64,000 bases of DNA from positions 363,382,001-363,446,000 of the forward strand of contig OZ024742.1 in the NCBI GenBank assembly GCA_964016885.1, given 5' to 3'. Source of the DNA: Eledone cirrhosa (Eukaryota). Both the position numbers and the translations under genes were made by a program. Shown here piece after piece: positions 5,346 to 55,531 of this stretch. The notes beneath the pieces were generated by a model that did not search any database, was not told where the DNA came from, and saw nothing but the letters and a program-made list of their open reading frames with translations. Position 1 is the first letter of the stretch; every line of letters starts with the position of its first letter.

Positions 5346-7402
5346 CCCTCCACCACCACCACCTTCCTTTTAAAATGGTAGTTGAAGAAAGGGAGGAGTT
5401 GTTGTCCGGAGATGATAATGAGCCAACAGATAAACACTAGCCCATAGTATTTGTCAGTGAATATAAAGTAAAGAGAAAACTCTTCTAATTTCAACAATAA
5501 TATAATTTCATTGTATAACTGATGCAAGTGTATTAATGTTTTTTTTTATTTAGTCATAAGGCCATCAATTTTGTGGAGGGTAAAGTCGATTAAATAGACC
5601 TCACTGCATGACTGGTACTTTATTTCATCGGCCCTGTAAGGACGAAAGGCAAAACTAACTTCGGTGGGATTTTAAATCAGAACGTAAATGGCTGTAGCTC
5701 TATGTCGCGAAGCCTCGTGTCTGACGCTCTGCCGCTATTAATATTAGTTAATATTGAATTGTATTCTTAATTATTAAAACCTATGCCCCTCCCCAGAAGT
5801 GTATTTCAGTACTAAACTATTAGAACTATATTTCGGTGTAGCTAATGGTAGATTCTGGTGTATAAACACTGTTCGTTATATTTCACATTTATTAGGTGCG
5901 TTTAAAATTTACAGTGAGGTGATTAGAGAATTGACGAGTCTATTATGACACGTAATATAAATGTCAGACTATTAGTTTGAGTAAGACAATCACCTTGAAA
6001 TAGTTAAACTATTATACCTACAGCCTAACTCTTAATACACATATATTTTCTTACATATCTTATTAGATTCAGAACACAATAGATACCACCTCTAAAGCAG
6101 AAAAGGTTACAATTCTCTTAAAATCGCTTCACACTGTATATACCATTTAGTAAATAATTTAATAAAATACACTAGTATAGGTTAAACAAGTATTATTTCC
6201 GAGTATATCGTCTTCAAACACAGCGGCACATTATTGTAATAACGAGTCGAAAAGCAGTGGCTCTCGGGATAAGATTGATTACATGAATATTAATTTAAAT
6301 ATATGGAAAAATAGAGAAAATATAATCTCGTTTCTTTCAAGTTACATTGAGGCCTAATGATAGTACAACTATTTGTAAATATAGAAAACATACATTTAAG
6401 ATTTTTAATAAAAACTACGTTAAATTAAGTATCCGGAGTATACATAATTTTTCTACGAAAAATAGCAAATATTATTAACAAAATTTTTAAACGGCTATCG
6501 ACGAGCAATTTAGATATTTTGTAAGAATAATACTTAGTAACTGTAGTACACGTAGCTTTGCTATAAAAATATCAAACGTTAATATAAAAAAATATTAAAA
6601 AGCTAGCATCTATTAATTCTTCTCTTTTGTGCAACGATGTAAGCTCTTAAATTATGTTATATGTCAAAGTACATACAGCTAATAATACATATTTGAAACA
6701 CATCTGGTGCTGAAGTTATAAATATATCAGAAACTATAATATATTTTAGAAGATATTACAACATGTTTGATTTTAAAAGCAGGTTAGCAATGGTTGTAAT
6801 ATTCATGAACAATGAACATATTTTTCCATTAAAAAATCACTCATTCAATGTGAACATACATTTCTAACGCCATAAATGTTGAAGTATTTCAAACAACATA
6901 GTGTCTCACGCCATAATGGTAAACACTGTGAACAAAGAAAAAGTATTGATTATGTTAACACGTATTTCATATTGTCCGATATTGTAGTCAAATATGGGAA
7001 ATGTTGAAATATTTCAAACTACCTAACGGTTGAGCACAAATAATACACATAATTTTAGGATCATAGGATATTCGGATCATAAGATCCGAATAAAGAATAT
7101 CGAAAATAAATCAGAAAAGTTACTATTGTTTATGTGCATCTCATATATCACAGATTGACATTTTCTCCATAAAATCTACGGCAAAATATGAAAACTAGGG
7201 TCGTAATATTCCTTGAACTATTTATTATATTATCCTGAATCCTTGAATTAAGTTTATTTTTTCTAAATTCTTTACAGAGTTGCATACAAATTTCTAAATA
7301 CAGCGATGAAACTAACTCAACTTGTCTTTTCAGTATATATATATATTTGTCTCTCTTTCTCTCTCCTTTTCCTCCTGGCCTTTTTATTAATAAAAGGCCT
7401 CA

Positions 7403-7477
7403 GGCGCACCCGACCTCCACCGATGTCCTGTATTTCAGCGCCGAAACATCGGATCGGGAAACATTTTCAGCTGACGA
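7403..7477 (+). ncRNA. Candidate non-circularly permuted hammerhead ribozyme (family 3)
   Basis: GGCGC a CCCGA cctcca CCGATG-TC-CTG tatttca GCGCC GAAA CATCGG a TCGGG ... CAG CTGACGA: four Watson-Crick helices and a complete core in reversed strand order. Confidence 0.7.
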
Positions 7478-7609
7478 TGGAAACTCCTTTCTTCCTTCCT
7501 CCTCTTGTTCCGTCCTAACCACCATCCTAAAACTTGATTTTAGTAACCACACAGCTCCTTTCGTTTTATATCATTTTAAATATATATACTTACGTATTTA
7601 TATCATATA

Positions 7610-7900
7610 TTCATTGTTATACTTTGGGAGGGTCATGTTGCCAATACAAACACACGCACCCGTGGGTTTCACTTCAATTTATTAAAAAGGTTTCCGGTGT
7701 TGGTTGATTGATTCGATAACCGGAAGGTTGTTTATATATTGTCAAAGATCTTTCGTCACACATTCTGTGACCTCCTCAGTGACTAGGTTTTTATTTTGTG
7801 TGTCTCTCCTTTGTTCTGTCTTACACCATCTTGTTTTTGTGTGTTGTGTGTCACAACATCAAGTAACCGCAATTTAATAACTTAAATAACACAAATACAC
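7610..7900 (-). mobile_element. Penelope-like element 3' terminal (pLTR) fragment
   Basis: Homologous to 14400-14722 and 56830-57103 (atgaccctcccaaagtataacaa terminus); contains a hammerhead. Confidence 0.75.
7741..7783 (-). ncRNA. Minimal type I hammerhead ribozyme (PLE type)
   Basis: rc: GTCA CTGAGGA GGTCACA gaatg TGTGAC GAAA GATC TT TGAC; palindromic stem III AGATCT. Confidence 0.8.
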
Positions 7901-8673: not shown

Positions 8674-11600
8674 ATCTGGGTCTCGCAACACAGATGGTAC
8701 ATTTGGACCCGGAGGGTCGACTAGTGGTTCTGGACCTTGGCAGTGGTAAAGGCGGAGCGTTTAGGTTGGTAGCCGCCTACGGCCCTTTCGGGTCAATGCG
8801 GCCGGACTTCTTCCATCGTCTGGAGACTTTTCTAGGGACGTCCCGCTCCTTGCTATTAGTGGGGGACTGGAATGGTATCCTAGATGCACGCTGGGACTAC
8901 GTAGGGGCCTGTCCCGATAGAGAGGGGTGTAATAGCCTCAAGGGTTAATCGGTCGATTTGACCTGGCCGATAGATATCGACTAGATTTTCCGACTGCGCC
9001 AACCTGGACTTGGGCAAATCGTAGCGGATCATCTAGGTCGTACCTAGATAGGTTCTTAGTTAGAATTAAGGATAAGGACTGTTTAAGTTGTCCAAAAATG
9101 CGCATGGTTGGCTATTCAGACCACAAATTAGTGACCTGCATGGTCAACCTTGACAGAACTCATAGACAGGGACCCGGTTACTGGAAGCTCAACTTGTCCT
9201 TACCGGCAAGTAAGGCTTACAGGGACCGGATTAGCACTTTAGTTAAGGAGCGGTTGACGGGCGCCATCGTCAACAGCAGGTGGTGGGGATCTCTCAAAAG
9301 AGAGATTAGAGTAGTCTCTATAGAATTTAGTAAGGAGTTAGCCTCCAATAGAAATAGGAAGGAAAGGGAGTTGGTAGATAGTGTAGAAGAGGCAATTAGA
9401 AGCGGCTACGTGGCTAGAGTGCTAGCGTCGAGAACGGCCCTGGGCCAGTTCTTCGACGCGAAACACGAAGGCTGCATCGTCCGAAGCAAAATACGTGCTC
9501 TGGGAAACGAGGGGACCAAAGCTGTTAGCTGGGCCCGCGTGACAGAAGCCAAAAGAGGGAGCAGATCGACTATCCGGTCTTTGCGAGACCAGGATGGACA
9601 GGTGATCCTTGAACCTAAGCAGATGTGCGAGGCTTTTCAAAAGCACTTTGCCGAATTGTTCGGAAGGGGCGGGGAGCCGGTTGGGGACGTGGACTTCGGT
9701 CCATACCACGACGGCCTGCCGCGTCTCTCGGACAGGGAGGCAAAGTCCTGCGAGGAGCCGATTTCAGCTGCTGAGATAGAGGACGTGCTGAGCCAATGCG
9801 GCAAACGCAAATCCCCGGGTCTCGATGGTCTTCCATGCGAACTATATCTAGCTATGCCGGACTTGTTCCCCTATCTCCTCGAGGCGGTCTACTGCAACTG
9901 GCAACAGAACGGGAGAATTCCCTGTGCTGTGACCAAGGGCGTAGTCACGCTAGTGAGGAAGGACGAGAACAAGGGGGACGATATAAATAATTTCAGGCCC
10001 ATAACTCTGCTAAATACAGAGTTACAGATTTTGGCCAAGGTGCTAGCAAAGAGGTTGGCGCTTGTCGTGGGCAACCTGGTGGGAGATGCGCAGACATGTG
10101 CTATCCCGTCCAGGTCCATCCACGATAACCTCCACCTCATGCGATACATCATAGAGAGGGTTGGAAACGAACCCGGCTTTGGTGGGGCCCTGATCAACTT
10201 GGATCAATCTAAGGCATTCGATAGGGTCGACCATGGTTACCTGGATGCGGTGCTAGCGGCGGCAGGCTTCGGACCCGTTTTCAGGGGCTGGATCAATGCC
10301 ATGCACAGCAGCCGCATCTGCTCTAGGGTCAAGGTGAACGGCTACCTTTCGGAGCCGTTCGAAATCGCGCGGTCCATCCGACAGGGGTGCCCTCTCACCT
10401 CCCTTCTATATGTAGTGACTCTAGAGCCACTGCTGCGGAAGTTGGAGTTGTTGCAGGGCATCCCGTTGGAACCGGGATTGCGGAAAGCGGTGTCAGCCTA
10501 CGCCGATGACGTAACAGTAATGGTGTCGACGGCCTCGGAAATCGGGGCGATCGGCACCTTACTGGAGGAGTACGAAGGGTTTACAGGGGCTAAGCTGAAC
10601 CGGGACAAGTCGATCGGTCTGCAACTCGGCACGTGGAGGGGCAGATCGATGCCCTCCGATGGCATCGTCGGGCGCTGGACGGAGGGCCCGGTGAAGTTGC
10701 TCGGGGTCTGGTTCGGACCAGACCTCCAGGTGGAGAGGAACTGGGGTGAGGTGACGAGCAGGGTGTTTGCACTGATCCAGAAGTGGGGAGAGTGCAAACT
10801 GTCCCTGAAAGGTCGGGCGGAGGTGGCGAACACTTATATAGCGTCCGTCATCTACTACCGCCTGACCGTGGTGCCTTGCCCAAGGGAAACGCTCGCCAAA
10901 ATGGAGCGCGCACTCTTCCAATTCCTTTGGAAGAAGCGGGCTCCTATGGTGAGGAGATCCAGCTGCTGTCAACACCCTTCGAAAGGAGGGCAGGGGATGC
11001 CGTGGCTGATGATACGTAAACACGCATTAAGGCTACGGCACCTTCAGGTATTCCTCTCCCGTAAACCGGTGTGGGCCCCGTTTGTGAGGCGAGCCTTTCC
11101 CAGACTCGTCTCACTCACCGAGCTGCAATCCTGGGTCAAGCAAAGACCGAGAAAACCGGGCGTCTGGCACACCGAGTGTGCCCAGGCGCTCACGGCTTTC
11201 TGGCAGGCGGACCCGGCTTTCAGTGGAGAATCCACCTTGTAATTCTATAGAGGGCTGGTGGTTAGCAGGTGCGACGACGCCCTCGGAGAAGCCCTAGGCA
11301 TGGAGGAAGACGAACTGGCCAACCTGTTCGATAGGACATTCAGCCCGGGACCCATGGATAACTTCCAGAGGTCCCTGGCCTGGCAATGCTACAGAAGGGC
11401 TCTGCCCGTTCGAGAAAGGCTCTACAGACACGGGCGCCCGGGTAGGGACCCATCGAAAAAGGTCTGTCCCAGATGCGTGTGTGACGAGGAAACCGTTGCA
11501 CACGCATTGGTACACTGCTCGGGCATTGCCGATCTGTGGGGCTATGTCGAACAACTGCTGTCAAGGGTGGGACCGATCCGGTTGACCACCGAGTCTATTG

Positions 11601-14767: not shown

Positions 14768-14899
14768 GACTAGACTCCTTCTTCCTCCTGTTTGACCTGT
14801 GCGGAATTCCTTCCTTGCTCACAATTTCGACTAGCTTTGATGGTCTTTATTCTCTCTCGTTCACGATTTCACCGAACTTATATTCATGGAAATCTGGGA

Positions 14900-15060
14900 C
14901 TTGACTTTTACTTCCTCACTTTTCGTTACATTACCATCTTTGTTTGTTTAGTCTCGCTCGTTCCTTTTATTTACGTGTCCCAACCAATTTCTTTAGCCGT
15001 TGCTCGCACCAACCGGAGATATATGGTCTTTAAAGCGATGAAATACCAATGAAATACCAA
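14900..15060 (+). repeat. Truncated copy of the 44-45 kb permuted-hammerhead element
   Basis: accatctttgtttgttta...tgctcgcaccaaccggagatatatggtctttaaagcgatgaaatacc matches 44836-44956. Confidence 0.7.
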
Positions 15061-15208
15061 TATATATATATATATATATATATATTTATCTGATCAGGTC
15101 AGGACAATGGTTCCGTGAAATCACGTGGCCAATGTCACCTTTGAAATATGTATCACTGCCTTATCAATAAAGGACTTTAACATATACTACTACTTCGCAT
15201 TTTCTTAT

Positions 15209-26638: not shown

Positions 26639-29600
26639 ATTTTAAAGAGGACGTGGGTCCCCCCTGCGTCGGGCGCATTAACCGCGTCCTCCTAAAAAAC
26701 TACCCCTCCCCAAACACCCACACAACTCCAAACTCCCCAACCACACAACACACTGATGCCCCTACACTTCCACAAACCACCACCCCACCCAACAACCCAT
26801 CCCCCACCCTAATGGAAATTGTGCAGCCCGATACCCGGGACGCAGAGAGGTAAGTGCCTTTTCTCTTCACCACCAACATGGCTATGCTAAGAGTAGGCTG
26901 TTTGAATGCGCGTGGCCTGGGCTCAACTTGGAAGCAAGCAATGCTTCTAAATGACCTCAGGTCACAACGTATACATGTGATGGTTATTTGCGAGGCCCGG
27001 ATCAGCAACGTGCGACAGCTGGCCCCCACTTTTGATGACTTTGAGGTGCACGCATCTCTCTGTCAGCCTGGAGGTGGGGGTGGAGTTGTCGTTCTGCTGC
27101 AAAAACATCTGGGTCTCGCAACACAGATGGTACATTTGGACCCGGAGGGTCGACTAGTGGTTCTGGACCTTGGCAGTGGTAAAGGCGGAGCGTTTAGGTT
27201 GGTAGCCGCCTACGGCCCTTTCGGGTCAATGCGGCCTGACTTCTTCCATCGTCTGGAGACTTTTCTAGGGACGTCCCGCTCCTTGCTATTAGTGGGGGAC
27301 TGGAATGGTATCCTAGATGCACGCTGGGACTACGTAGGGGCCTGTCCCGATAGAGAGGGGTGTAATAGCCTCAAAGGGTTAATCGTTCGATTTGACTTGG
27401 CCGATAGATATCGACTAGATTTTCCGACTGCGCCAACCTGGACTTGGGCAAATCGTAGCGGATCATCTAGGTCGTACCTAGATAGGTTCTTAGTTAGAAT
27501 TAAGGATAAGGACTGTTTAAGTTGTCCAAAAATGCGCATGGTTGGCTATTCAGACCACAAATTAGTGACCTGCATGGTCAACCTTGACAGAACTCATAGA
27601 CAGGGACCCGGTTACTGGAAGCTCAACTTGTCCTTACCGGCAAGTAAGGCTTACAGGGACCGGATTAGCACTTTAGTTAAGGAGCGGTTGACGGGCGCCA
27701 TCGTCAACAGCAGGTGGTGGGGATCTCTCAAAAGAGAGATTAGAGTAGTCTCTATAGAATTTAGTAAGGAGTTAGCCTCCAATAGAAATAGGAAGGAAAG
27801 GGAGTTGGTAGATAGTGTAGAAGAGGCAATTAGAAGCGGCGACGTGGCCAGAGTGCTAGCGTCGAGAACGGCCCTGGGCCAGTTCTTCGACGCGAAACAC
27901 GAAGGCTGCATCGTCCGAAGCAAAATACGTGCTCTGGGAAACGAGGGGACCAAAGCTGTTAGCTGGGCCCGCGTGACAGAAGCCAAAAGAGGGAGCAGAT
28001 CCACTATCTGGTCTTTGCGAGATCAGGATGGACGGGTGATCCTTGAACCAAGGCAGATGTGCGAGGCTTTTCAAAAGCACTTTGCCGGATTGTTCGGAAG
28101 GGGCGGGGAGCCGGTTGGGGATGTGGACTTCGGTCCATACCTCGACGGCCTGTCGCGTCTCTCGGACAGGGAGGCGAAGTCCTGCGAGAGCCGATTTCAG
28201 CCGCTGAGATAGAGGACGTGCTGAGCCAATGCGGCAAACGCAAATCCCCGGGTCTCGATGGTCTTCCATACGAACTATATCTAGCTATGCCGGACTTGTT
28301 CCCCGATCTCCTCGAGGCGGTCTACTGCAACTGGCAACAGAACGGGAGAATTCCCTGTGCTGTAACCAAGGGCGTAGTCACGCTAGTGAGGAAGGACGAG
28401 AACAAGGGGGACGATATAAATAACTTCAGGCCCATAACTCTGCTAAACACAGAGTTACAGATTTTGGCCAAGGTGCTAGCAAAGAGGTTGGCGCTTGTCG
28501 TGGGCAACCTGGTGGGAGATGCGCAGACATGTGCTATCCCGTCCAGGTCCATCCACGACAACCTCCACCTCATGCGATACATCACAGAGAGGGTTGGGAA
28601 CGAACTCGGCTTTGGTGGGGCCCTGATCAACTTGGATCAATCTAAGGCATTCGGTAGGGTCGACCATGGTTACCTGGATGCGGTGCTAGCGGCGGCAGGC
28701 TTCGGACCCGTTTTCAGGGGCTGGATCAATGCCATGCACAGCAGCCGCATCTGCTCTAGGGTCAAGGTGAACGGCTACCTCCCGGAGCCGTTCGAAATCG
28801 CGCGGTCCATCCGACAGGGGTGCCCTCTCTCCTCCCTTCTGTATGTAATGACTCTAGAGCCACTGCTGCGGAAGTTGTAGTTGTTGCAGGGCATCCCGTT
28901 GGAACCGGGATTGCGGAAAGCGGTGTCAGTCTACGCCGATGACGTAACAGTAATGGTGTCAACGGCCTCGGAAATCGGGGCGATCGGCACCTTACTGGAG
29001 GAGTACGAAAGGTTTACAGGGGCTAAGCTGAACCGGGACAAGTCGATCGGTTTGCAACTCGGCACGTGGAGGGGCAGATCGATGCCCTCCGATGGCGTTG
29101 TCGGGCGCTGGACGGAGGGCCCGGTGAAGTTGCTCGGGGTCTTGTTCGGACCAGACCTCCAGGTGGAGAAGAACTGGGGTGAGGTAACGAACAGGGTGTT
29201 TGCACTGACCCAGAAGTGGGCCGAGTGCAAACTGTCCCTGAAAGGTCGGGCGGAGGTGGCGAACACTTATATAGCGTCCGTCATCTACTACCGCCTGACC
29301 GTTGTGCCTTGCCCAAGGGAAACGCTCGCCAAAATGGAGCGCGCACTCTTCCAATTCCTTTGGAAGAAGCGGGCTCCTATGGTGAGGAGATCCAGCTGCT
29401 GTCAACACCCTTCGAAAGGAGGGCTGGGGATGCCGTGGCTAATGATACGTAAACACGCATTAAGGCTACGGCACCTTCAGGTATTCCTCTCCGGTCAACC
29501 GGTGTGGGCCCTGTTTGTGAGACGAGCCTTTCCCAGACTCGTCTCACTCACCGAGCTGCAATCCTGGGTCAAGCAAAGACCGAGAAAACTGGGCGCCTGG

Positions 29601-32730: not shown

Positions 32731-35276
32731 ATGGCCAATATAAGAGTTGGATGTGTGAACGTACGCGGCCTGGGCATGCCCTGGAAACAAGGCAAACTCT
32801 TAAACGACCTCAGGTCGCACAGTATGGATGTGGTAGCCATTTGCGAGTCCAGGATCCACAGCGAGCGACAGCTGGCCCCAATCTTCGATGAATGTGTGAT
32901 CTACGCATCTCTCTGTCAACCGGGGGGTGGGGGCGGAGTTGCCGTTTTGCTGCGGAAAAACCAGGGCCTCGTAACACAGACGATACATCTGGACCCGGAG
33001 GGTCGACTGGTGGTCCTAGACGTTGACGGTAGAGAAGGTGGAGCCTTCAGGCTGGTAGCCGCATATGCCCCATCCGGGACACCGCGGCCAGACTTCTTCA
33101 AACGTCTAGAGACTTTTCTGGGAACGTCCCGCTCCTTGCTTTTAGTGGGGGACTGGAATGGAATCCTAGATGCACGTTGGGACTATGTGGGAGCATGTCC
33201 CGATAAAGGGGGGGGAGGGGTGTAACAGCCTCAAACAGTTAATCGACCGATTTGACCTGGCCGATAGATATCGACTAGATTTTCCGACTGCGCCACTGTG
33301 GACGTGGAGTAATCGTAGCGGAACATCTAGATCGTACCTAGATAGGGTTCTAGTTAGAAATAAGGATAGGGACATGTTAAGCTGTCCACAAATGTTCATG
33401 GTTGCCTATTCAGATCACAAACTAGTGACCTGCATGGCCAACCTTGATAGAACCCATAGACAAGGACCCGGCTACTGGAAGCTGAACTTGTCGTTACCGA
33501 CAAGCAAAGCCTACAGTAGACGGATTAGCACTTTAGTTAAACAGCACTTGACAGGGGCCATTGTCAACAACAGATGGTGGTACTCTCTCAAGAGGGCAAT
33601 TAGATTAGACTCAATAGTTTTTAGTAAAGAATTAGCGTTAGATAGAAATAGAACCGAGAAGGAACTGGTAGATAAAGTAGAAGAGGCAATTAGAAGTGGC
33701 AACGTAGCCAGCGTGCTAGCAACGAGAACGGCCTTGGACCAGTTCTTCGACGCAAAGCACGAGGGCTGCGTTGTCAGAAGCAAAATACGTGCTCTGGGAA
33801 ACGAGGGAGCCAAAGCTGTTAGCTGGGCCCGAGTGACGGAGGCAAAAAGTGGCAACAAGTCCACGATTCGGTCTTTGAAGGACCAAAACGGACGCGTGAT
33901 ACGTGAGCCGAAGCAGATGTGTGCGGCTTTTCAGCGGCACTTTGCTCAACTGTTCGGGAGGGGCGGCGCGCCGGGAGAGGCTATGGATTTCGGTCCATAC
34001 CTCGACGGCCTACCGCGACTCTCGGACAGCGAGGCAAAGTTCTGCGAAAAGTCGATTTCAGCGGCTGAGACAGAGGACGCGCTGAGTCAATGCGGCAAAC
34101 GCAAATCTCCAGATCTCGACGGTCTACCCTACGAATTTTACGTAGCAATGCCGAACTTATTCTCCGGTCTCCTGGAAGCGGTCTACTGCAACTGGCAACA
34201 GAACGGGAGAATTCCCAGTTCTGTAACCGGGGGCGTGGTCACACTAATCAAGAAGGACGAGAATAAGGGGGATGACATAGGCAACTTCCGGCCCATAACT
34301 CTGCTAAACACAGAGTTACAGATTTTGGCCAAGGTGTTGGCAAAGAGGCTGGCGCTTGTCGTCGAGAACCTGGTGGGAGAAGCGCAGACATGCGCAATCC
34401 CGACCAGGTCTATACACGACAACCTCCACCTCATGCGATACAACATAGAGAGGGTAGGGTGTAAAACCGCCTTCGGTGGGGCCCTGATCAACTTGGATCA
34501 GTCCAAGGCTTTCGATAGGGTTGACCATCGTTACCTGGATGCGGTGCTCGAGGCGGCAGGCTTCGGACCCGTGTTCAGGGGCTGGATTGCTGCAATGCAC
34601 AACAGCAACATCTGCTCAAGGGTCAAGGTGAACGGCTACCTCTCGGAGCCGTTCCATATTACGCGATCCATTCGACAGGGATGCCCTCTCTCCTCCCTTC
34701 TGTACGTACTGACTCTCGAGCCACTATTGCGGAAGCTGGAGCTACTGCAGGGCATCCCTCTGGAACAAGGACTGCGGAAAGCGACGTCGGCCTACGCCGA
34801 CGACGTGACAGTAATGGTGTCGAGCGCCTCGCAAATCGAGGAAGTCGGTACCTTACTGAAGGAATACGAAAATTTCACAGGAGCGAAGCTGAACCGGGAC
34901 AAGTCCATCGGTTTGCAACTCGGATCGTGGAGAGGAAAACCGATGCCTTCCGATGGCGTCGTCGGACGCTGAGCGGAAGGACTGGTAAAGCTGCTCGGGG
35001 TCTGGTTTGGTCCGGACCTGCAGGTGGAGAAGAACTGGAACGAAGTGACGGCCAAGGTGTTTGCACTCACCCAGAAGTGGGCCGAGTGCAAACTATACTT
35101 GAAAGGTCGAGCGGAGGTGGCGAACACTTTCATAGCGTCCGCCATCTACTACCGCTTGACCGTCGTGCCTTGTCCAGCCAAAACGCTCGCCAAAATGGAG
35201 CGCGCGCTCTTCCGATTCCTTTGGAAGAGGCGGGCTCCTTTGGTGAGAAGATCCATCTGCTGCCAACACTCTTCTA
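32731..35276 (+). pseudogene. ORF2 APE endonuclease plus reverse transcriptase of copy 5
   Basis: CVNVRGL, ICESR, AYAP, GDWN, SDH, YADD; frameshift in the G-run ~33210; TGA at 34970. Confidence 0.92.
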
Positions 35277-43889: not shown

Positions 43890-44249
43890 CTCATGTAAGT
43901 ATGTATGTATATGTTCTATATATATATACACATATACATGTGTCCTCAACTCACTATCTTATAAAATGTATTAGTACCCTATACTATAATCAAATGTATA
44001 TGTACATATCAACTCTATCTATACTCTACTATCATCTCTATCTAACTCACTCTCTATATAATGTACTGTCAGTATGTATGTACTAGTACTCTATCTCACT
44101 ATATACACATCTCCATGTGCCTCTCTCATCTCTATCCAATGTACTCTGTACATCTAATATCTCTCACACTCACTATATACTCTATCTATCTCATATATAA
44201 ATGAAATAAACACTATATATAAATATAAGACACATGGACTGCTGTGCTG

Positions 44250-45501
44250 TTGCACATGGGTTACATATGAATAAAATTAGTCCTTCATCAGTGATCTTCC
44301 AACCTTCATTGGTATTTCATCGCTTTAAAAATCATATACCTCTGATTGGTGCGAGCAATAACTAAATAAAGTTATTGGGACACGTAAAATAGCGTGAGAC
44401 GAGCGAGACATGTAAACAAACAAAGATGGTATTGCAACGGAAAGATAGGAAGAGACATGATATCTGTTAGCTTAAGCTTGGTGAAATCATTGACGAGAGA
44501 TACAGACTATCCGACAGGGTGAGATGTGAGCGAGAAAAGGATTTCACACAGGTCAAACGGGAGGAAGTGAGAGACGGGAAGAAGCAGAGAGTGAGTGAGT
44601 GGAAGTATGAGGAAGAGGCTAGCCGAGAGAGAGTGTGACTGGCAGAGGGGGCAAAAAGAAGGTGAGATATACAGAGAGAGGGGAAGCAGTAAGAAAGAAA
44701 CAGAATCGCAGCTGAGGAAAAAATATAAATATAAGAAAAATGGGTTACATATGAATAAAATGAGTCCTTCATCGGTGATCTTGCAACCTTCATTGGTAAT
44801 CATGTACTTCTCTCTTCCTATCTTTCCGTTGCAATACCATCTTTGTTTGTTTACATATCTCGCTCGCTTCACACTATTTTACTTGTCCCAATAACGTTAT
44901 ATTTAGTTATTGCTCGCACCAACCAGAGGTATATGATTTTAAAACGATGAAATACCAATGAAGGTTGGAAGATCACTGATGAAGGACTAATTTTATTCAT
45001 ATGTAACCCATGTGCAACCACGCAGCACTCCATTTTTCTTATATTTATATTTTTTCCTCAGCTGCGATTGTCTGTTTCTTTCTTACTGCTTCCCCTCTCT
45101 CTGTATCTCTCACCTTCTTTTTACCCTCTCTGCCAGTCACACTCTACTCGGCTGGCCTCTTCCTCGCACTTCTACTCACTCACTCTCTGCTTCTTCCCGT
45201 CTTTCACTTCCTCCCGTTTGACCTGTGTGAAATCCTTTTCTCGCTCACATCTCACCCATGTCTGATGGTCTGTATCTCTCGTCCATGAATTCACCAAGCT
45301 TAAGCTTATAGATATCATGTACCTATCTCTTCCTATCTTTCCGCTGCAATACCATCTTTGTTTGTTTACATGTCTCGCTCGCTTCACGCTATTTTACTTG
45401 TCCCAATAACTTTATTTAGTTATTGCTCGCACCAACCAGAGGTATATGATTTTTAAAGCGATCAAATAACAATGAAGTTTGGAAGATCACTGATGAAGAA
45501 C

Positions 45502-45510
<9 letters not shown>
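44250..45510. mobile_element. Tandem plus inverted ~513-bp non-coding repeat with permuted-hammerhead motifs (family 1)
   Basis: Motif at 44281-44356 (-), 44914-44982 (+), 45427-45496 (+, degenerate); pyrimidine-rich spacer; 44250-44800 is inverted relative to 44950-45510. Confidence 0.8.
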
Positions 45511-53454: not shown

Positions 53455-54174
53455 ATAATAGCTTTCACCGTATTTTTTGACTAAAGAAATCACATCATGT
53501 GATGTGTTGGTGTAAATGGTAGCACAGTGGTCTGGATAACCAAAGATGTGGGTTCGTCTCCCATGTACGTTAATACTCATCTTTTTCCATTTATCTGAGG
53601 GTTCTAAACCCCATTATCAGACTAAAATTTCTTTAGTAAAAAAATACGGTGAAAGCTATTCTATTTTCTAATTTCAAACCTGCTCACTGTTTTAAAACAT
53701 ATTTACTAGTCATATATATATATATATATATATATTTTACAAAGCGAAACTGATCAGTAAGGGCCACTAGGAGAGGTAAATATTTATATTATATTTTTTA
53801 ATGTATTTTAAAGAATTGATTGGATTTTACTTGCTCTGCTTATCTTAATATTAAAGTTCTGGTGTATCAAATTAATACCATTGAACAACCTTGAATCATA
53901 GACAACCTATGTATTTCTAGGGGTACCTAGTATCCTTGGACATATTAACTTCATTCATTATACTCCTCCATTATGTTGAGAACAAATCTGTTGTTCTATT
54001 TAGCTGCTATTTTTTTTAGTAGTAATTGTAGACAGCAAGTCTTTGATTTTCCCGCTTTTACTTCGGTCCAGTTTACATACGGGTCACTTTTACGACCTTT
54101 CAGACCTTTATTTGCTGGCAGGGGGTCATATATTTTGTCGTTCTTGGGACGTTTAGCTCTAGGAAAGGAAAATG

Positions 54175-54682: not shown

Positions 54683-54761
54683 TTTCTATATTAAAACACT
54701 TATACTCTGCTATGTATTGAGTACCTTACTTTCTGTGGTTATATATATATATATATATATA

Positions 54762-55451
54762 TTGTATCGCGCTACCTTGAGGTATATGGTCTGTAATGCG
54801 AAGAAATACCTATGATGGCTAGTAGACCACTGATGACGGATCTTCCTGGCTTCTATTTCTAATTCTTCATTTATTATATATATATCCTATTTGCATCAAC
54901 ACAGCTCGCCATTTTTCATTCATATATGCTTTCACCTTCGCTGTGACCTGTCTTTTACTCTTCCCTTACTGCTATCCTCTTTCTCTCTCCCCTTTCTCTC
55001 TCCTTCTCCCTCTTACTTTCACTCACCCCCTTTTTCTAGTCACCCTCTCTCGGCTAGCCTCTTCCTCACACATTCACTCGTTCACTCTCTGCTACTCACC
55101 CTCTCTCTCACTTCCTCCATCGTGTCACACCGTACGAGATTCTTTCCTCACTCACATCCGCACGGCCAAGATGTGCCTTTGTCTTCTCGTCAGTATTCGC
55201 AAGTTCTTATGTTCAAAATGAATTATTGACTTGATTTTCTCATTGTTTCCTCTCTTTACGTTGCCTCATCATTCATGTTTGTTTACCTGTCTCACTTACT
55301 CCACCCAACTCTTTTTATCCCACTAATTTAATTTAGTTATTGTATCGACCTAGCTTGAGGTGTATGGTCTGTAATGCGAAGAAATACCTGTGATGGCTAG
55401 TAGATCACTGATGACGGATATTCCTGGCTTCTATTTCTAATTCTTCATTTG

Positions 55452-55452
<1 letters not shown>
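54762..55452 (+). mobile_element. 578-bp tandem non-coding element with two permuted-hammerhead motifs (family 2)
   Basis: Motifs at 54767-54836 and 55345-55414; spacer shares ctctctcggctagcctcttcctca with family 1; (TA)n on both sides. Confidence 0.8.

Positions 55453-55531
<79 letters not shown>

Follow-up and report, generated by a model that had tools for sequence, protein, structure and literature searches.

The hammerhead ribozyme has been divided into 3 blocks, C, G, and S, each assumed to be uninterruptible, which leaves 6 permutations, of which SGC and CSG were validated (Eckert et al. 2023; PMC10085705). Its types SGC and CSG come from metatranscriptomes or metagenomes only, bar one GCS candidate, and type CSG is represented by 2 metagenomic sequences. 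In animals, the non-LTR retrozymes carry type I hammerheads in units of 170 to 400 nt and give rise to demonstrated circRNAs (PMC7229834; bioRxiv 10.64898/2026.07.22.740005). Among the Penelope-like elements (PLEs), the Naiads have been described as being without a canonical hammerhead, and an "HHR_half_core" was flagged in 8 families (Craig et al. 2021; PMC8557442). The PLE signature given there consists of partial tandems, an inverted 5' copy, a tail of 30 to 40 nt, and (TA)n targets, and the end pattern has been explained by 2 internal start sites of the reverse transcriptase (PMC11167929).

We analyzed a window of 64,000 nt from Eledone cirrhosa (GCA_964016885.1, contig OZ024742.1, positions 363,382,001 to 363,446,000, forward strand), taken from a genome of 3.0 Gb that is rich in microsatellites. 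An earlier note on this DNA had proposed a permuted hammerhead at 44250..45510 within a tandem and inverted element resembling PLEs or retrozymes, and all of the motif parts that it named were found in the sequence. The insertion is based on a non-coding Penelope-like unit of about 515 nt, with TA-rich DNA on both sides. Its features, in window coordinates, are as follows:

~44217..45510, no strand assigned: whole insertion, an inverted arm plus a direct partial tandem (from self-BLAST, family comparison, and boundaries)
44217..44798, minus strand: inverted arm, with half motif D, a deletion of ~22 nt, the remaining unit, motif A, and the long 3' end
44228..44266, minus strand: PLE "tail" of ~40 nt (2 family 3' ends ~40 nt apart; compare PMC8557442 and PMC11167929)
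44799..45510, plus strand: direct arm, beginning with a 5'-truncated piece, then motif B, a single full unit, and motif C, and ending with the short 3' end joined to (TA)n
44934..45446, plus strand: unit between the predicted cuts, 513 nt, pyrimidine-rich, longest ATG ORF 92 aa
45509..45536, no strand assigned: (TA)n target microsatellite at the short 3' end
44280..44381, minus strand: copy A, 6 helices, intact core, one U.G wobble in helix X
44885..44987, plus strand: copy B, intact core, predicted cut after 44933 (H17)
45400..45501, plus strand: copy C, GAAA changed to CAAA, mismatches in stem III, helix X, and the closing helix
44740..44798, minus strand: copy D, 3' half only, starting in the 3' strand of stem III, core U4 changed to C, no cut site

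The tail was present only at the end of the inverted arm and not in the direct arm, and the left boundary of the tail and insertion is ambiguous (44217-44228) owing to TA microhomology. The predicted cut in copy A lies between 44335 and 44334. Those on the plus strand, after 44933 and 45446, are indeed 513 nt apart, as the earlier note had calculated, and its remark that the second plus-strand motif had lost GAAA was also correct; absent from its list were copy D and 2 of the helices, namely the closing helix and the 5' hairpin. In copy B, the outer pair of stem II is lost through a private change to A from the G that is the family majority. The defects of copy C are private to that copy, according to the family alignments and contigs from sequencing runs, and copy C is predicted to be a dead ribozyme. 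Thousands of run contigs, possibly from the same sample as the assembly, aligned to the unit and restored the family letters. Because copy C is dead and copy D has no cut site, the insertion itself would yield no ~510-nt monomer or circle, which could come only from intact tandems elsewhere in the genome.

Judged from its sequence, the motif contains a hammerhead core that is permuted in a non-circular way and pseudoknotted, with the cut site first, then GAAA, and then CUGAUGA. From 5' to 3', it consists of the closing helix, a hairpin, the 5' strand of stem II, helix X, the 5' strand of stem III, and the UH cut; after the cut follow the 3' strand of stem I, a linker of 4 to 5 nt, the 3' strand of stem II, GAAA, and the 3' strand of stem III; at the end come X', the 5' strand of stem I, CUGANGA, and the closing helix. 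Stem II thus has its 5' strand upstream of the cut site and not after CUGAUGA. The closing helix joins the trailer to an upstream strand, and the hairpin lies directly 5' of stem II. In copy B (plus strand), the predicted pairings and the core letters are located as follows:

44885-88/44984-87: closing helix
44889-95/44906-12: hairpin
44913-17/44944-48: stem II
44919-24/44963-68: helix X
44927-32/44952-57 (3' strand at least 44953-56): stem III
44934-39/44970-75: stem I
44949-52 and 44976-82: core letters GAAA and CUGAUGA, from the sequence

We refer to the element at 44217-45510 as F1, to a relative near 54.8 kb as F2, and to the motif at 7403 as F3; the latter had been said to have the same order as the motif at 44914-44982, which we could confirm. 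The relatives in the window are all on the plus strand:

54750..55481, plus strand: F2, unit of 578 nt, 65% identical to the F1 unit, 2 motifs
7360..7492, plus strand: F3 (the "7403" motif), which shares the topology, without a BLASTN match to F1
14781..15094, plus strand: decayed relative that stops before CUGAUGA

The F2 motifs showed compensatory changes relative to F1 in stem I, helix X, and the closing helix.

To assess the helices, we used a sequence-only MAFFT alignment of 18 subfamily representatives from 25 clusters, leaving out 1 spurious cluster, 3 truncated ones, 2 with internal deletions, and 1 near-duplicate. In helices II, X, III, and I taken together, 89.8% of the cells were paired and 17 of the 22 pairs showed two-sided changes, while 0 of 500 shuffles reached this pairing and slid partners gave 32% to 42%. 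The descriptor by which the representatives were chosen required stems I and III, so the covariation of these 2 stems is partly circular and the informative helices are II and X. Stem II made with the upstream (leader) strand was 85.2% paired, with 0 of 500 shuffles reaching its pairing or its score; two-sided changes in 3 of its 5 pairs were not significant (153/500). The main change in stem II (G-C/U-A) tracks the 2 main clades and may be a single event within the genome. The 10.1-11.1 pair was open in 7 of the 16 scored representatives, including F1, which has C.U as its stem II junction pair. The partner of U11.1 in F1 may instead be the A that directly follows CUGAUGA (after A9), and the break would then lie at 10.1/10.2. 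Helix X was 77% paired with two-sided changes in 5 of its 6 pairs, and by analogy with type SGC would be a tertiary tie between stems I and II that replaces the contact between loops I and II.

The closing helix and the 5' hairpin were assessed in 19 hand-picked F1-type copies, with F3-type copies excluded. Here, 94.3% of the cells were paired and 6 of 11 pairs showed two-sided changes, and the 2 helices would hold A9 beside stem II. A 2-bp helix between leader and trailer within the hairpin was dropped as a candidate because the hairpin and closing helix covaried. A stem II made from the trailer, in 2 registers, was 43% and 39% paired, no better than slid controls. Nested RNAfold structures of F1 copies recovered the closing helix, the hairpin, helix X, and stem III, by a method that cannot show pseudoknots, and the z-scores of the nested minimum free energies were weak (-0.3 to -1.9).

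All 11 core letters were retained while the stems changed, and the CUGANGA and GAAA core was present in copies A and B and in the family majority but not in copy C. In 51 related copies picked by the 3' half and stem III, the cut dinucleotide was UA in 23, UC in 19, UU in 6, another in 3, and UG in 0, such that UH was found at 48 of 51 cut sites, consistent with the NUH rule. In unselected loci, conservation was 79/88 in the core vs 667/792 in the rest, a comparison of 8 copies that is underpowered. No hammerhead was found in the 64-kb window with Rfam at the gathering threshold, the sole match being a tRNA-like sequence at 53501-53572 (plus strand, 40.9 bits), perhaps derived from a SINE. By eye, canonical or minimal type I hammerhead-like cores were seen in other PLE-type repeats of the window, at 7779 (minus), 56911 (plus), 14482 (plus), 16369, 16793, 17259, 52875 (minus), 21878, 54241, and 54638, all below the Rfam score. 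The permuted hammerhead of the earlier note was borne out by the covariation of the helices, with cleavage itself being a prediction.

First-look searches of the genome DNA gave 1,305 candidates for F1, 2,182 for F2, and 843 for F3. The pattern GAAA-N18-32-CUGAYGA-N-GG had 26,000 matches genome-wide vs 3,172 for the reversed control, and the matches revealed many subfamilies. A descriptor of the S-G-C order had 101 matches, 74 of them strict, in 346 kb of family loci together with the window and none in 3 shuffles; in 600 kb of unselected genome it matched 3 times (2 strict), compared with 0 to 2 in 10 shuffles (strict: 1 match in 1 of the 10) and 0 in the reversed sequence. The F1 copies form 5'-truncated arrays of 1 to 2.2 units, frequently with inverted arms. 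Their unit is non-coding, the motifs are spaced by 500 to 518 nt, and units across the subfamilies span 470 to 800 nt. The 3' ends of F1 fall at 2 sites ~40 nt apart, each joined to (TA)n; by eye, ~30 rows had the long and ~15 the short end, a ratio biased by the query. Inverted F1 pairs, including 44217-45510, typically have one long and one short 3' end. With a mean difference of 1.8% from the majority in the best 49 copies by score, F1 looks young.

Loci L225, L226, L265, and L266 represent further subfamilies that have diverged strongly and have other letters in stem II while keeping the topology. Another group, F4, consists of tandems of ~540 nt (L159, L191:1986-2122, L203, L206, L270) and has kept the closing helix, the hairpin, a 3-bp upstream stem II, GAAA, and CUGACGA, while a convincing stem I or cut block is absent. 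F4 is possibly a deleted, dead, or differently wired variant.

The copies also contain traces at the predicted cut. A pattern that forces a gap at this position identified 19 copies, 8 of which had non-duplicative inserts of 2 to 7 nt that were mostly A- or purine-rich, the remainder being 2 single A, 6 TA expansions, and 3 duplications. A control gap 13 nt downstream gave 8 matches at 7 places, all of them local duplications (non-duplicative 0/8). The difference of 8 vs 0 corresponds to p ~0.004 for equal rates, as calculated by hand with one control site. One F3 copy, L331, contains a 5-nt A-rich insert at the predicted cut. We infer that the RNA broke at the cut prior to reverse transcription and that its ends were in some cases tailed and joined again, or that a template jump spanned the break. 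The F3 and F1-type copies L330, G000:C1543:41652, and G000:C1:97499879 had lost a single base at the predicted cut junction. In L328 (the L328:1521 region, minus strand), a 75-nt unit that starts at N1.1, the predicted cut of F3, is repeated ~2.6 times and is possibly a copy of a mini-circle.

A pile-up of 5' truncations at the cut was not seen for F3, in which 30 of the 38 matches were analyzed (12 intact, 1 broken far upstream); of 3,489 F1-type matches, 100 were read by eye. No peak was present in F3, with 4 of the 17 junctions located within 1 nt of the cut (-15/-16). These 4 junctions near the cut were among the few that were not joined to (TA)n.

The same wiring was seen at the tails of several published Naiads. 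We read by eye 38 of the 54 Naiad 3' ends in the supplement of PMC8557442, assigned by file order and not computed. The split topology, with the 5' strand of stem II upstream, was seen in 7 of the 38 (Obim, Ovul, Esco with a degenerate stem II, Amil, Bfor with a 2-bp stem I, Plae, and Movir-2), from 2 Octopus hosts, Euprymna, Acropora, Beroe, Pomphorhynchus, and Morbakka-2. The letters of stem II differ among these Naiads and are still supplied from upstream, and most of the 7 also show the closing helix and the hairpin, both by eye. The octopus Naiad consensus also has the upstream hairpin region of F1. Another 6 of the 38 ends, likewise by eye, carried type-CSG hammerheads (Naiad-1/2/3_Nbra, Hcon, Hpol, Smim), with hosts being Nippostrongylus for 3 elements, Haemonchus, Heligmosomoides, and Stegodyphus mimosarum; in the motif of S. 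mimosarum there is a 1-nt insert between A9 and 10.1. Among the other ends, 4 were ambiguous (Dst-2, Dst-3, Ppla, Lpol) and in 21 the stretch shown contained no motif or one of another kind. At the same position, CGi, Sglo, Olur, Tgra, Skow-1, Pfla-1, Pfla-2, and possibly Chem-2 have a conserved structured motif that is different and lacks the hammerhead core. Since the wiring is the same at the tails of several published Naiads, the motif is likely the missing ribozyme of these elements, with cutting predicted.

A Naiad ORF or RT, or any autonomous partner combining an N-terminal GIY-YIG with CxC and DKA, was not found in the Eledone genome in shallow searches with GIY-YIG, DKA, and Naiad-like motif patterns and with Pfam. 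The Naiad-like pattern gave 2 decayed relatives without an ORF, the DKA pattern gave 11 matches that were all non-RT, and Pfam on 19 ORFs gave LINE domains only. Among the best 150 of the 10,597 candidates in the GIY-YIG search, the endonuclease was C-terminal in 30 by translation and in 20 more by ORF position. None of the Neptune-type ORFs examined had the permuted motif at its 3' end. ORFs of 844 to 1096 aa ending in GIY-YIG were observed at L277:1775-5062, L278:4809-7622, and L279:2488-5019, and are candidate near-intact PLEs of the Eledone genome. Within the window, LINE-type ORFs with RVT_1 or Exo_endo_phos domains at 8936-11242, 26854-28880, and 33170-34972 (plus strand) are unrelated to the element.

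Taken together, we consider it likely, with good confidence, that the motif is a conserved fold of 6 helices whose hammerhead core is complete and newly permuted, that it self-cleaves after AUA, and that non-autonomous PLEs, probably derived from Naiads, use it as their 3' pseudo-LTR ribozyme. Among the points against this reading, a Poseidon PLE used uncleaved RNA as a template in vitro (PMC11167929), and a break between A9 and stem II conflicts with the block contiguity assumed in PMC10085705. A fold that is real and yet non-catalytic or negligibly slow, such as a hammerhead-derived binding or priming signal for the PLE protein, would agree with that break, with the 10.1-11.1 mismatch in many subfamilies, with the lack of a truncation peak at the cut, and with the finding that Poseidon insertion in vitro was not impaired when the hammerhead was mutated (PMC11167929). 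We regard it as improbable, since the 11 core letters and the NUH rule have been kept while the stems were rewritten, across several phyla by eye, and since inserts are found exactly at the predicted cut. That the sequence is an ordinary type-SGC hammerhead, with a stem II of 1 to 2 bp made from the letters after CUGAUGA and an upstream pairing that is alternative or regulatory, seems very unlikely. The A after A9 in F1 can pair with U11.1, the GG of F3-type copies can pair with CC after a 1-nt insert, and a 1-bp stem II was active in PMC3088659, but the trailer-made stem II paired no better than its slid controls and the trailer GG covaries with an upstream strand instead.

A further alternative concerns the partner only and overlaps with the preferred reading, namely that the same ribozyme is mobilized by Neptune-type PLEs or another PLE clade rather than by Naiads. 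The GIY-YIG matches read in Eledone have a C-terminal endonuclease and no Naiad RT was found in the searches above, the copies are young whereas cephalopod Naiads are described as long inactive (PMC8557442), and microsatellites are also favored by Neptune. Against this, the 3' ends of Naiad consensus sequences agree by eye with the motif together with its upstream hairpin, the motif was not seen at the ends of the Neptune-type ORFs, and Naiads could have been missed with only the best 150 candidates scored; we consider a partner of this kind possible but rather unlikely. A chance motif or an assembly artefact in a repeat might be expected in AT-rich, repeat-rich DNA with short helices, but is refuted by the covariation and by the descriptor and genome counts, as well as by the run contigs, possibly of the same sample, that restored the family letters, and its probability is negligible.

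Under the preferred reading of a self-cleaving ribozyme, read-through or tandem transcripts would be cut after AUA into monomers of ~515 nt, the monomers and circles being postulated by analogy with retrozymes (PMC7229834). Some monomers would be re-ligated, leaving occasional A-rich scars, or circularized. A PLE RT/GIY-YIG protein acting in trans would then prime internally on a (TA)n target, at either of 2 sites ~25 and ~65 nt past C3, and reverse-transcribe through the cut site, so that the products are partial tandems with 5' truncations and inverted arms. Any copy that spans the cut requires a template that was uncut, religated, or circular. The sequence, the covariation, the architecture, and the scars are observed in the DNA, from which catalysis, circles, and the identity of the mobilizer are inferred.

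A broader proposal, which we hold to be fairly probable, is that the motif is an active seventh-permutation hammerhead, opened inside the CUGANGA-stem II block, that is the ribozyme of many Naiads, in hosts ranging between ctenophores and cephalopods, interconverts with the CSG form of nematodes and a spider through circular permutation, drives tens of thousands of retrozyme-like copies, and leaves scars of cleavage and religation in the DNA. If true, there is a hammerhead permutation beyond the 6 thought possible, and non-circularly permuted hammerheads, so far metagenomic with unnamed hosts, occur at high copy number in animal chromosomes. Within one clade of tandem-repeat retroelements, the CSG form, seen in nematodes and a spider, and the split form, seen in ctenophore, cnidarian, acanthocephalan, and cephalopod hosts, would be circular permutations of each other, and the pair would offer a natural system for how permutations arise. 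The view that Naiads proliferate without hammerheads would also be revised, as many of them appear to have ribozymes that were invisible to descriptors.

With types SGC and CSG, the Eledone motif shares the cyclic order S-G-C, the short linker leading from the strand of stem I to that of stem II, the extra helix that ties the far ends of stems I and II, and the 2 core pseudoknots. It differs from them in being opened between A9 and N10.1(-10.2), inside block C, in carrying 2 added helices, the closing helix and the hairpin, at the opening, and in residing in a retroelement of a cellular genome. A viroid hammerhead reportedly tolerates an additional base between A9 and G10.1, and it is therefore plausible that the motif could be opened at A9/10.1. 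With the SGC connections kept and block C broken, the motif would therefore work like types SGC and CSG without being a member of either. The Rfam types I to III are nested three-way junctions, whereas the Eledone motif is not nested, has the order S-G-C, and gave no Rfam match. A literature search, mostly of open-access papers, found no description of a topology opened between A9 and stem II and no permuted hammerheads in Naiads.

At the level of the element, F1 shares with the Naiad PLEs the 5' truncation, partial tandems, inverted arm, tail of ~40 nt, and (TA)n targets, and differs in being without an ORF. Minimal type I hammerheads of PLE pseudo-LTRs reportedly lie near the 3' end of the element, upstream of the tail, and the Eledone motif has the same position, although it is permuted and they have the nested CGS order. 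Like the animal non-LTR retrozymes, F1 consists, at the family level, of non-coding, PLE-derived tandem units that bear a ribozyme motif; unlike them, it has a permuted motif, units of 500 to 518 nt (470 to 800 nt overall), and short arrays of 1 to 2.2 units, and is known from DNA. The architecture of the insertion thus upheld the tandem and inverted PLE- or retrozyme-like element of the earlier note, but not a classical non-LTR retrozyme, as there is no type I hammerhead and the unit is ~515 nt. What appears to be new is a hammerhead permutation opened in the CUGANGA-stem II block, while the hammerhead class and the SGC and CSG orders are known.
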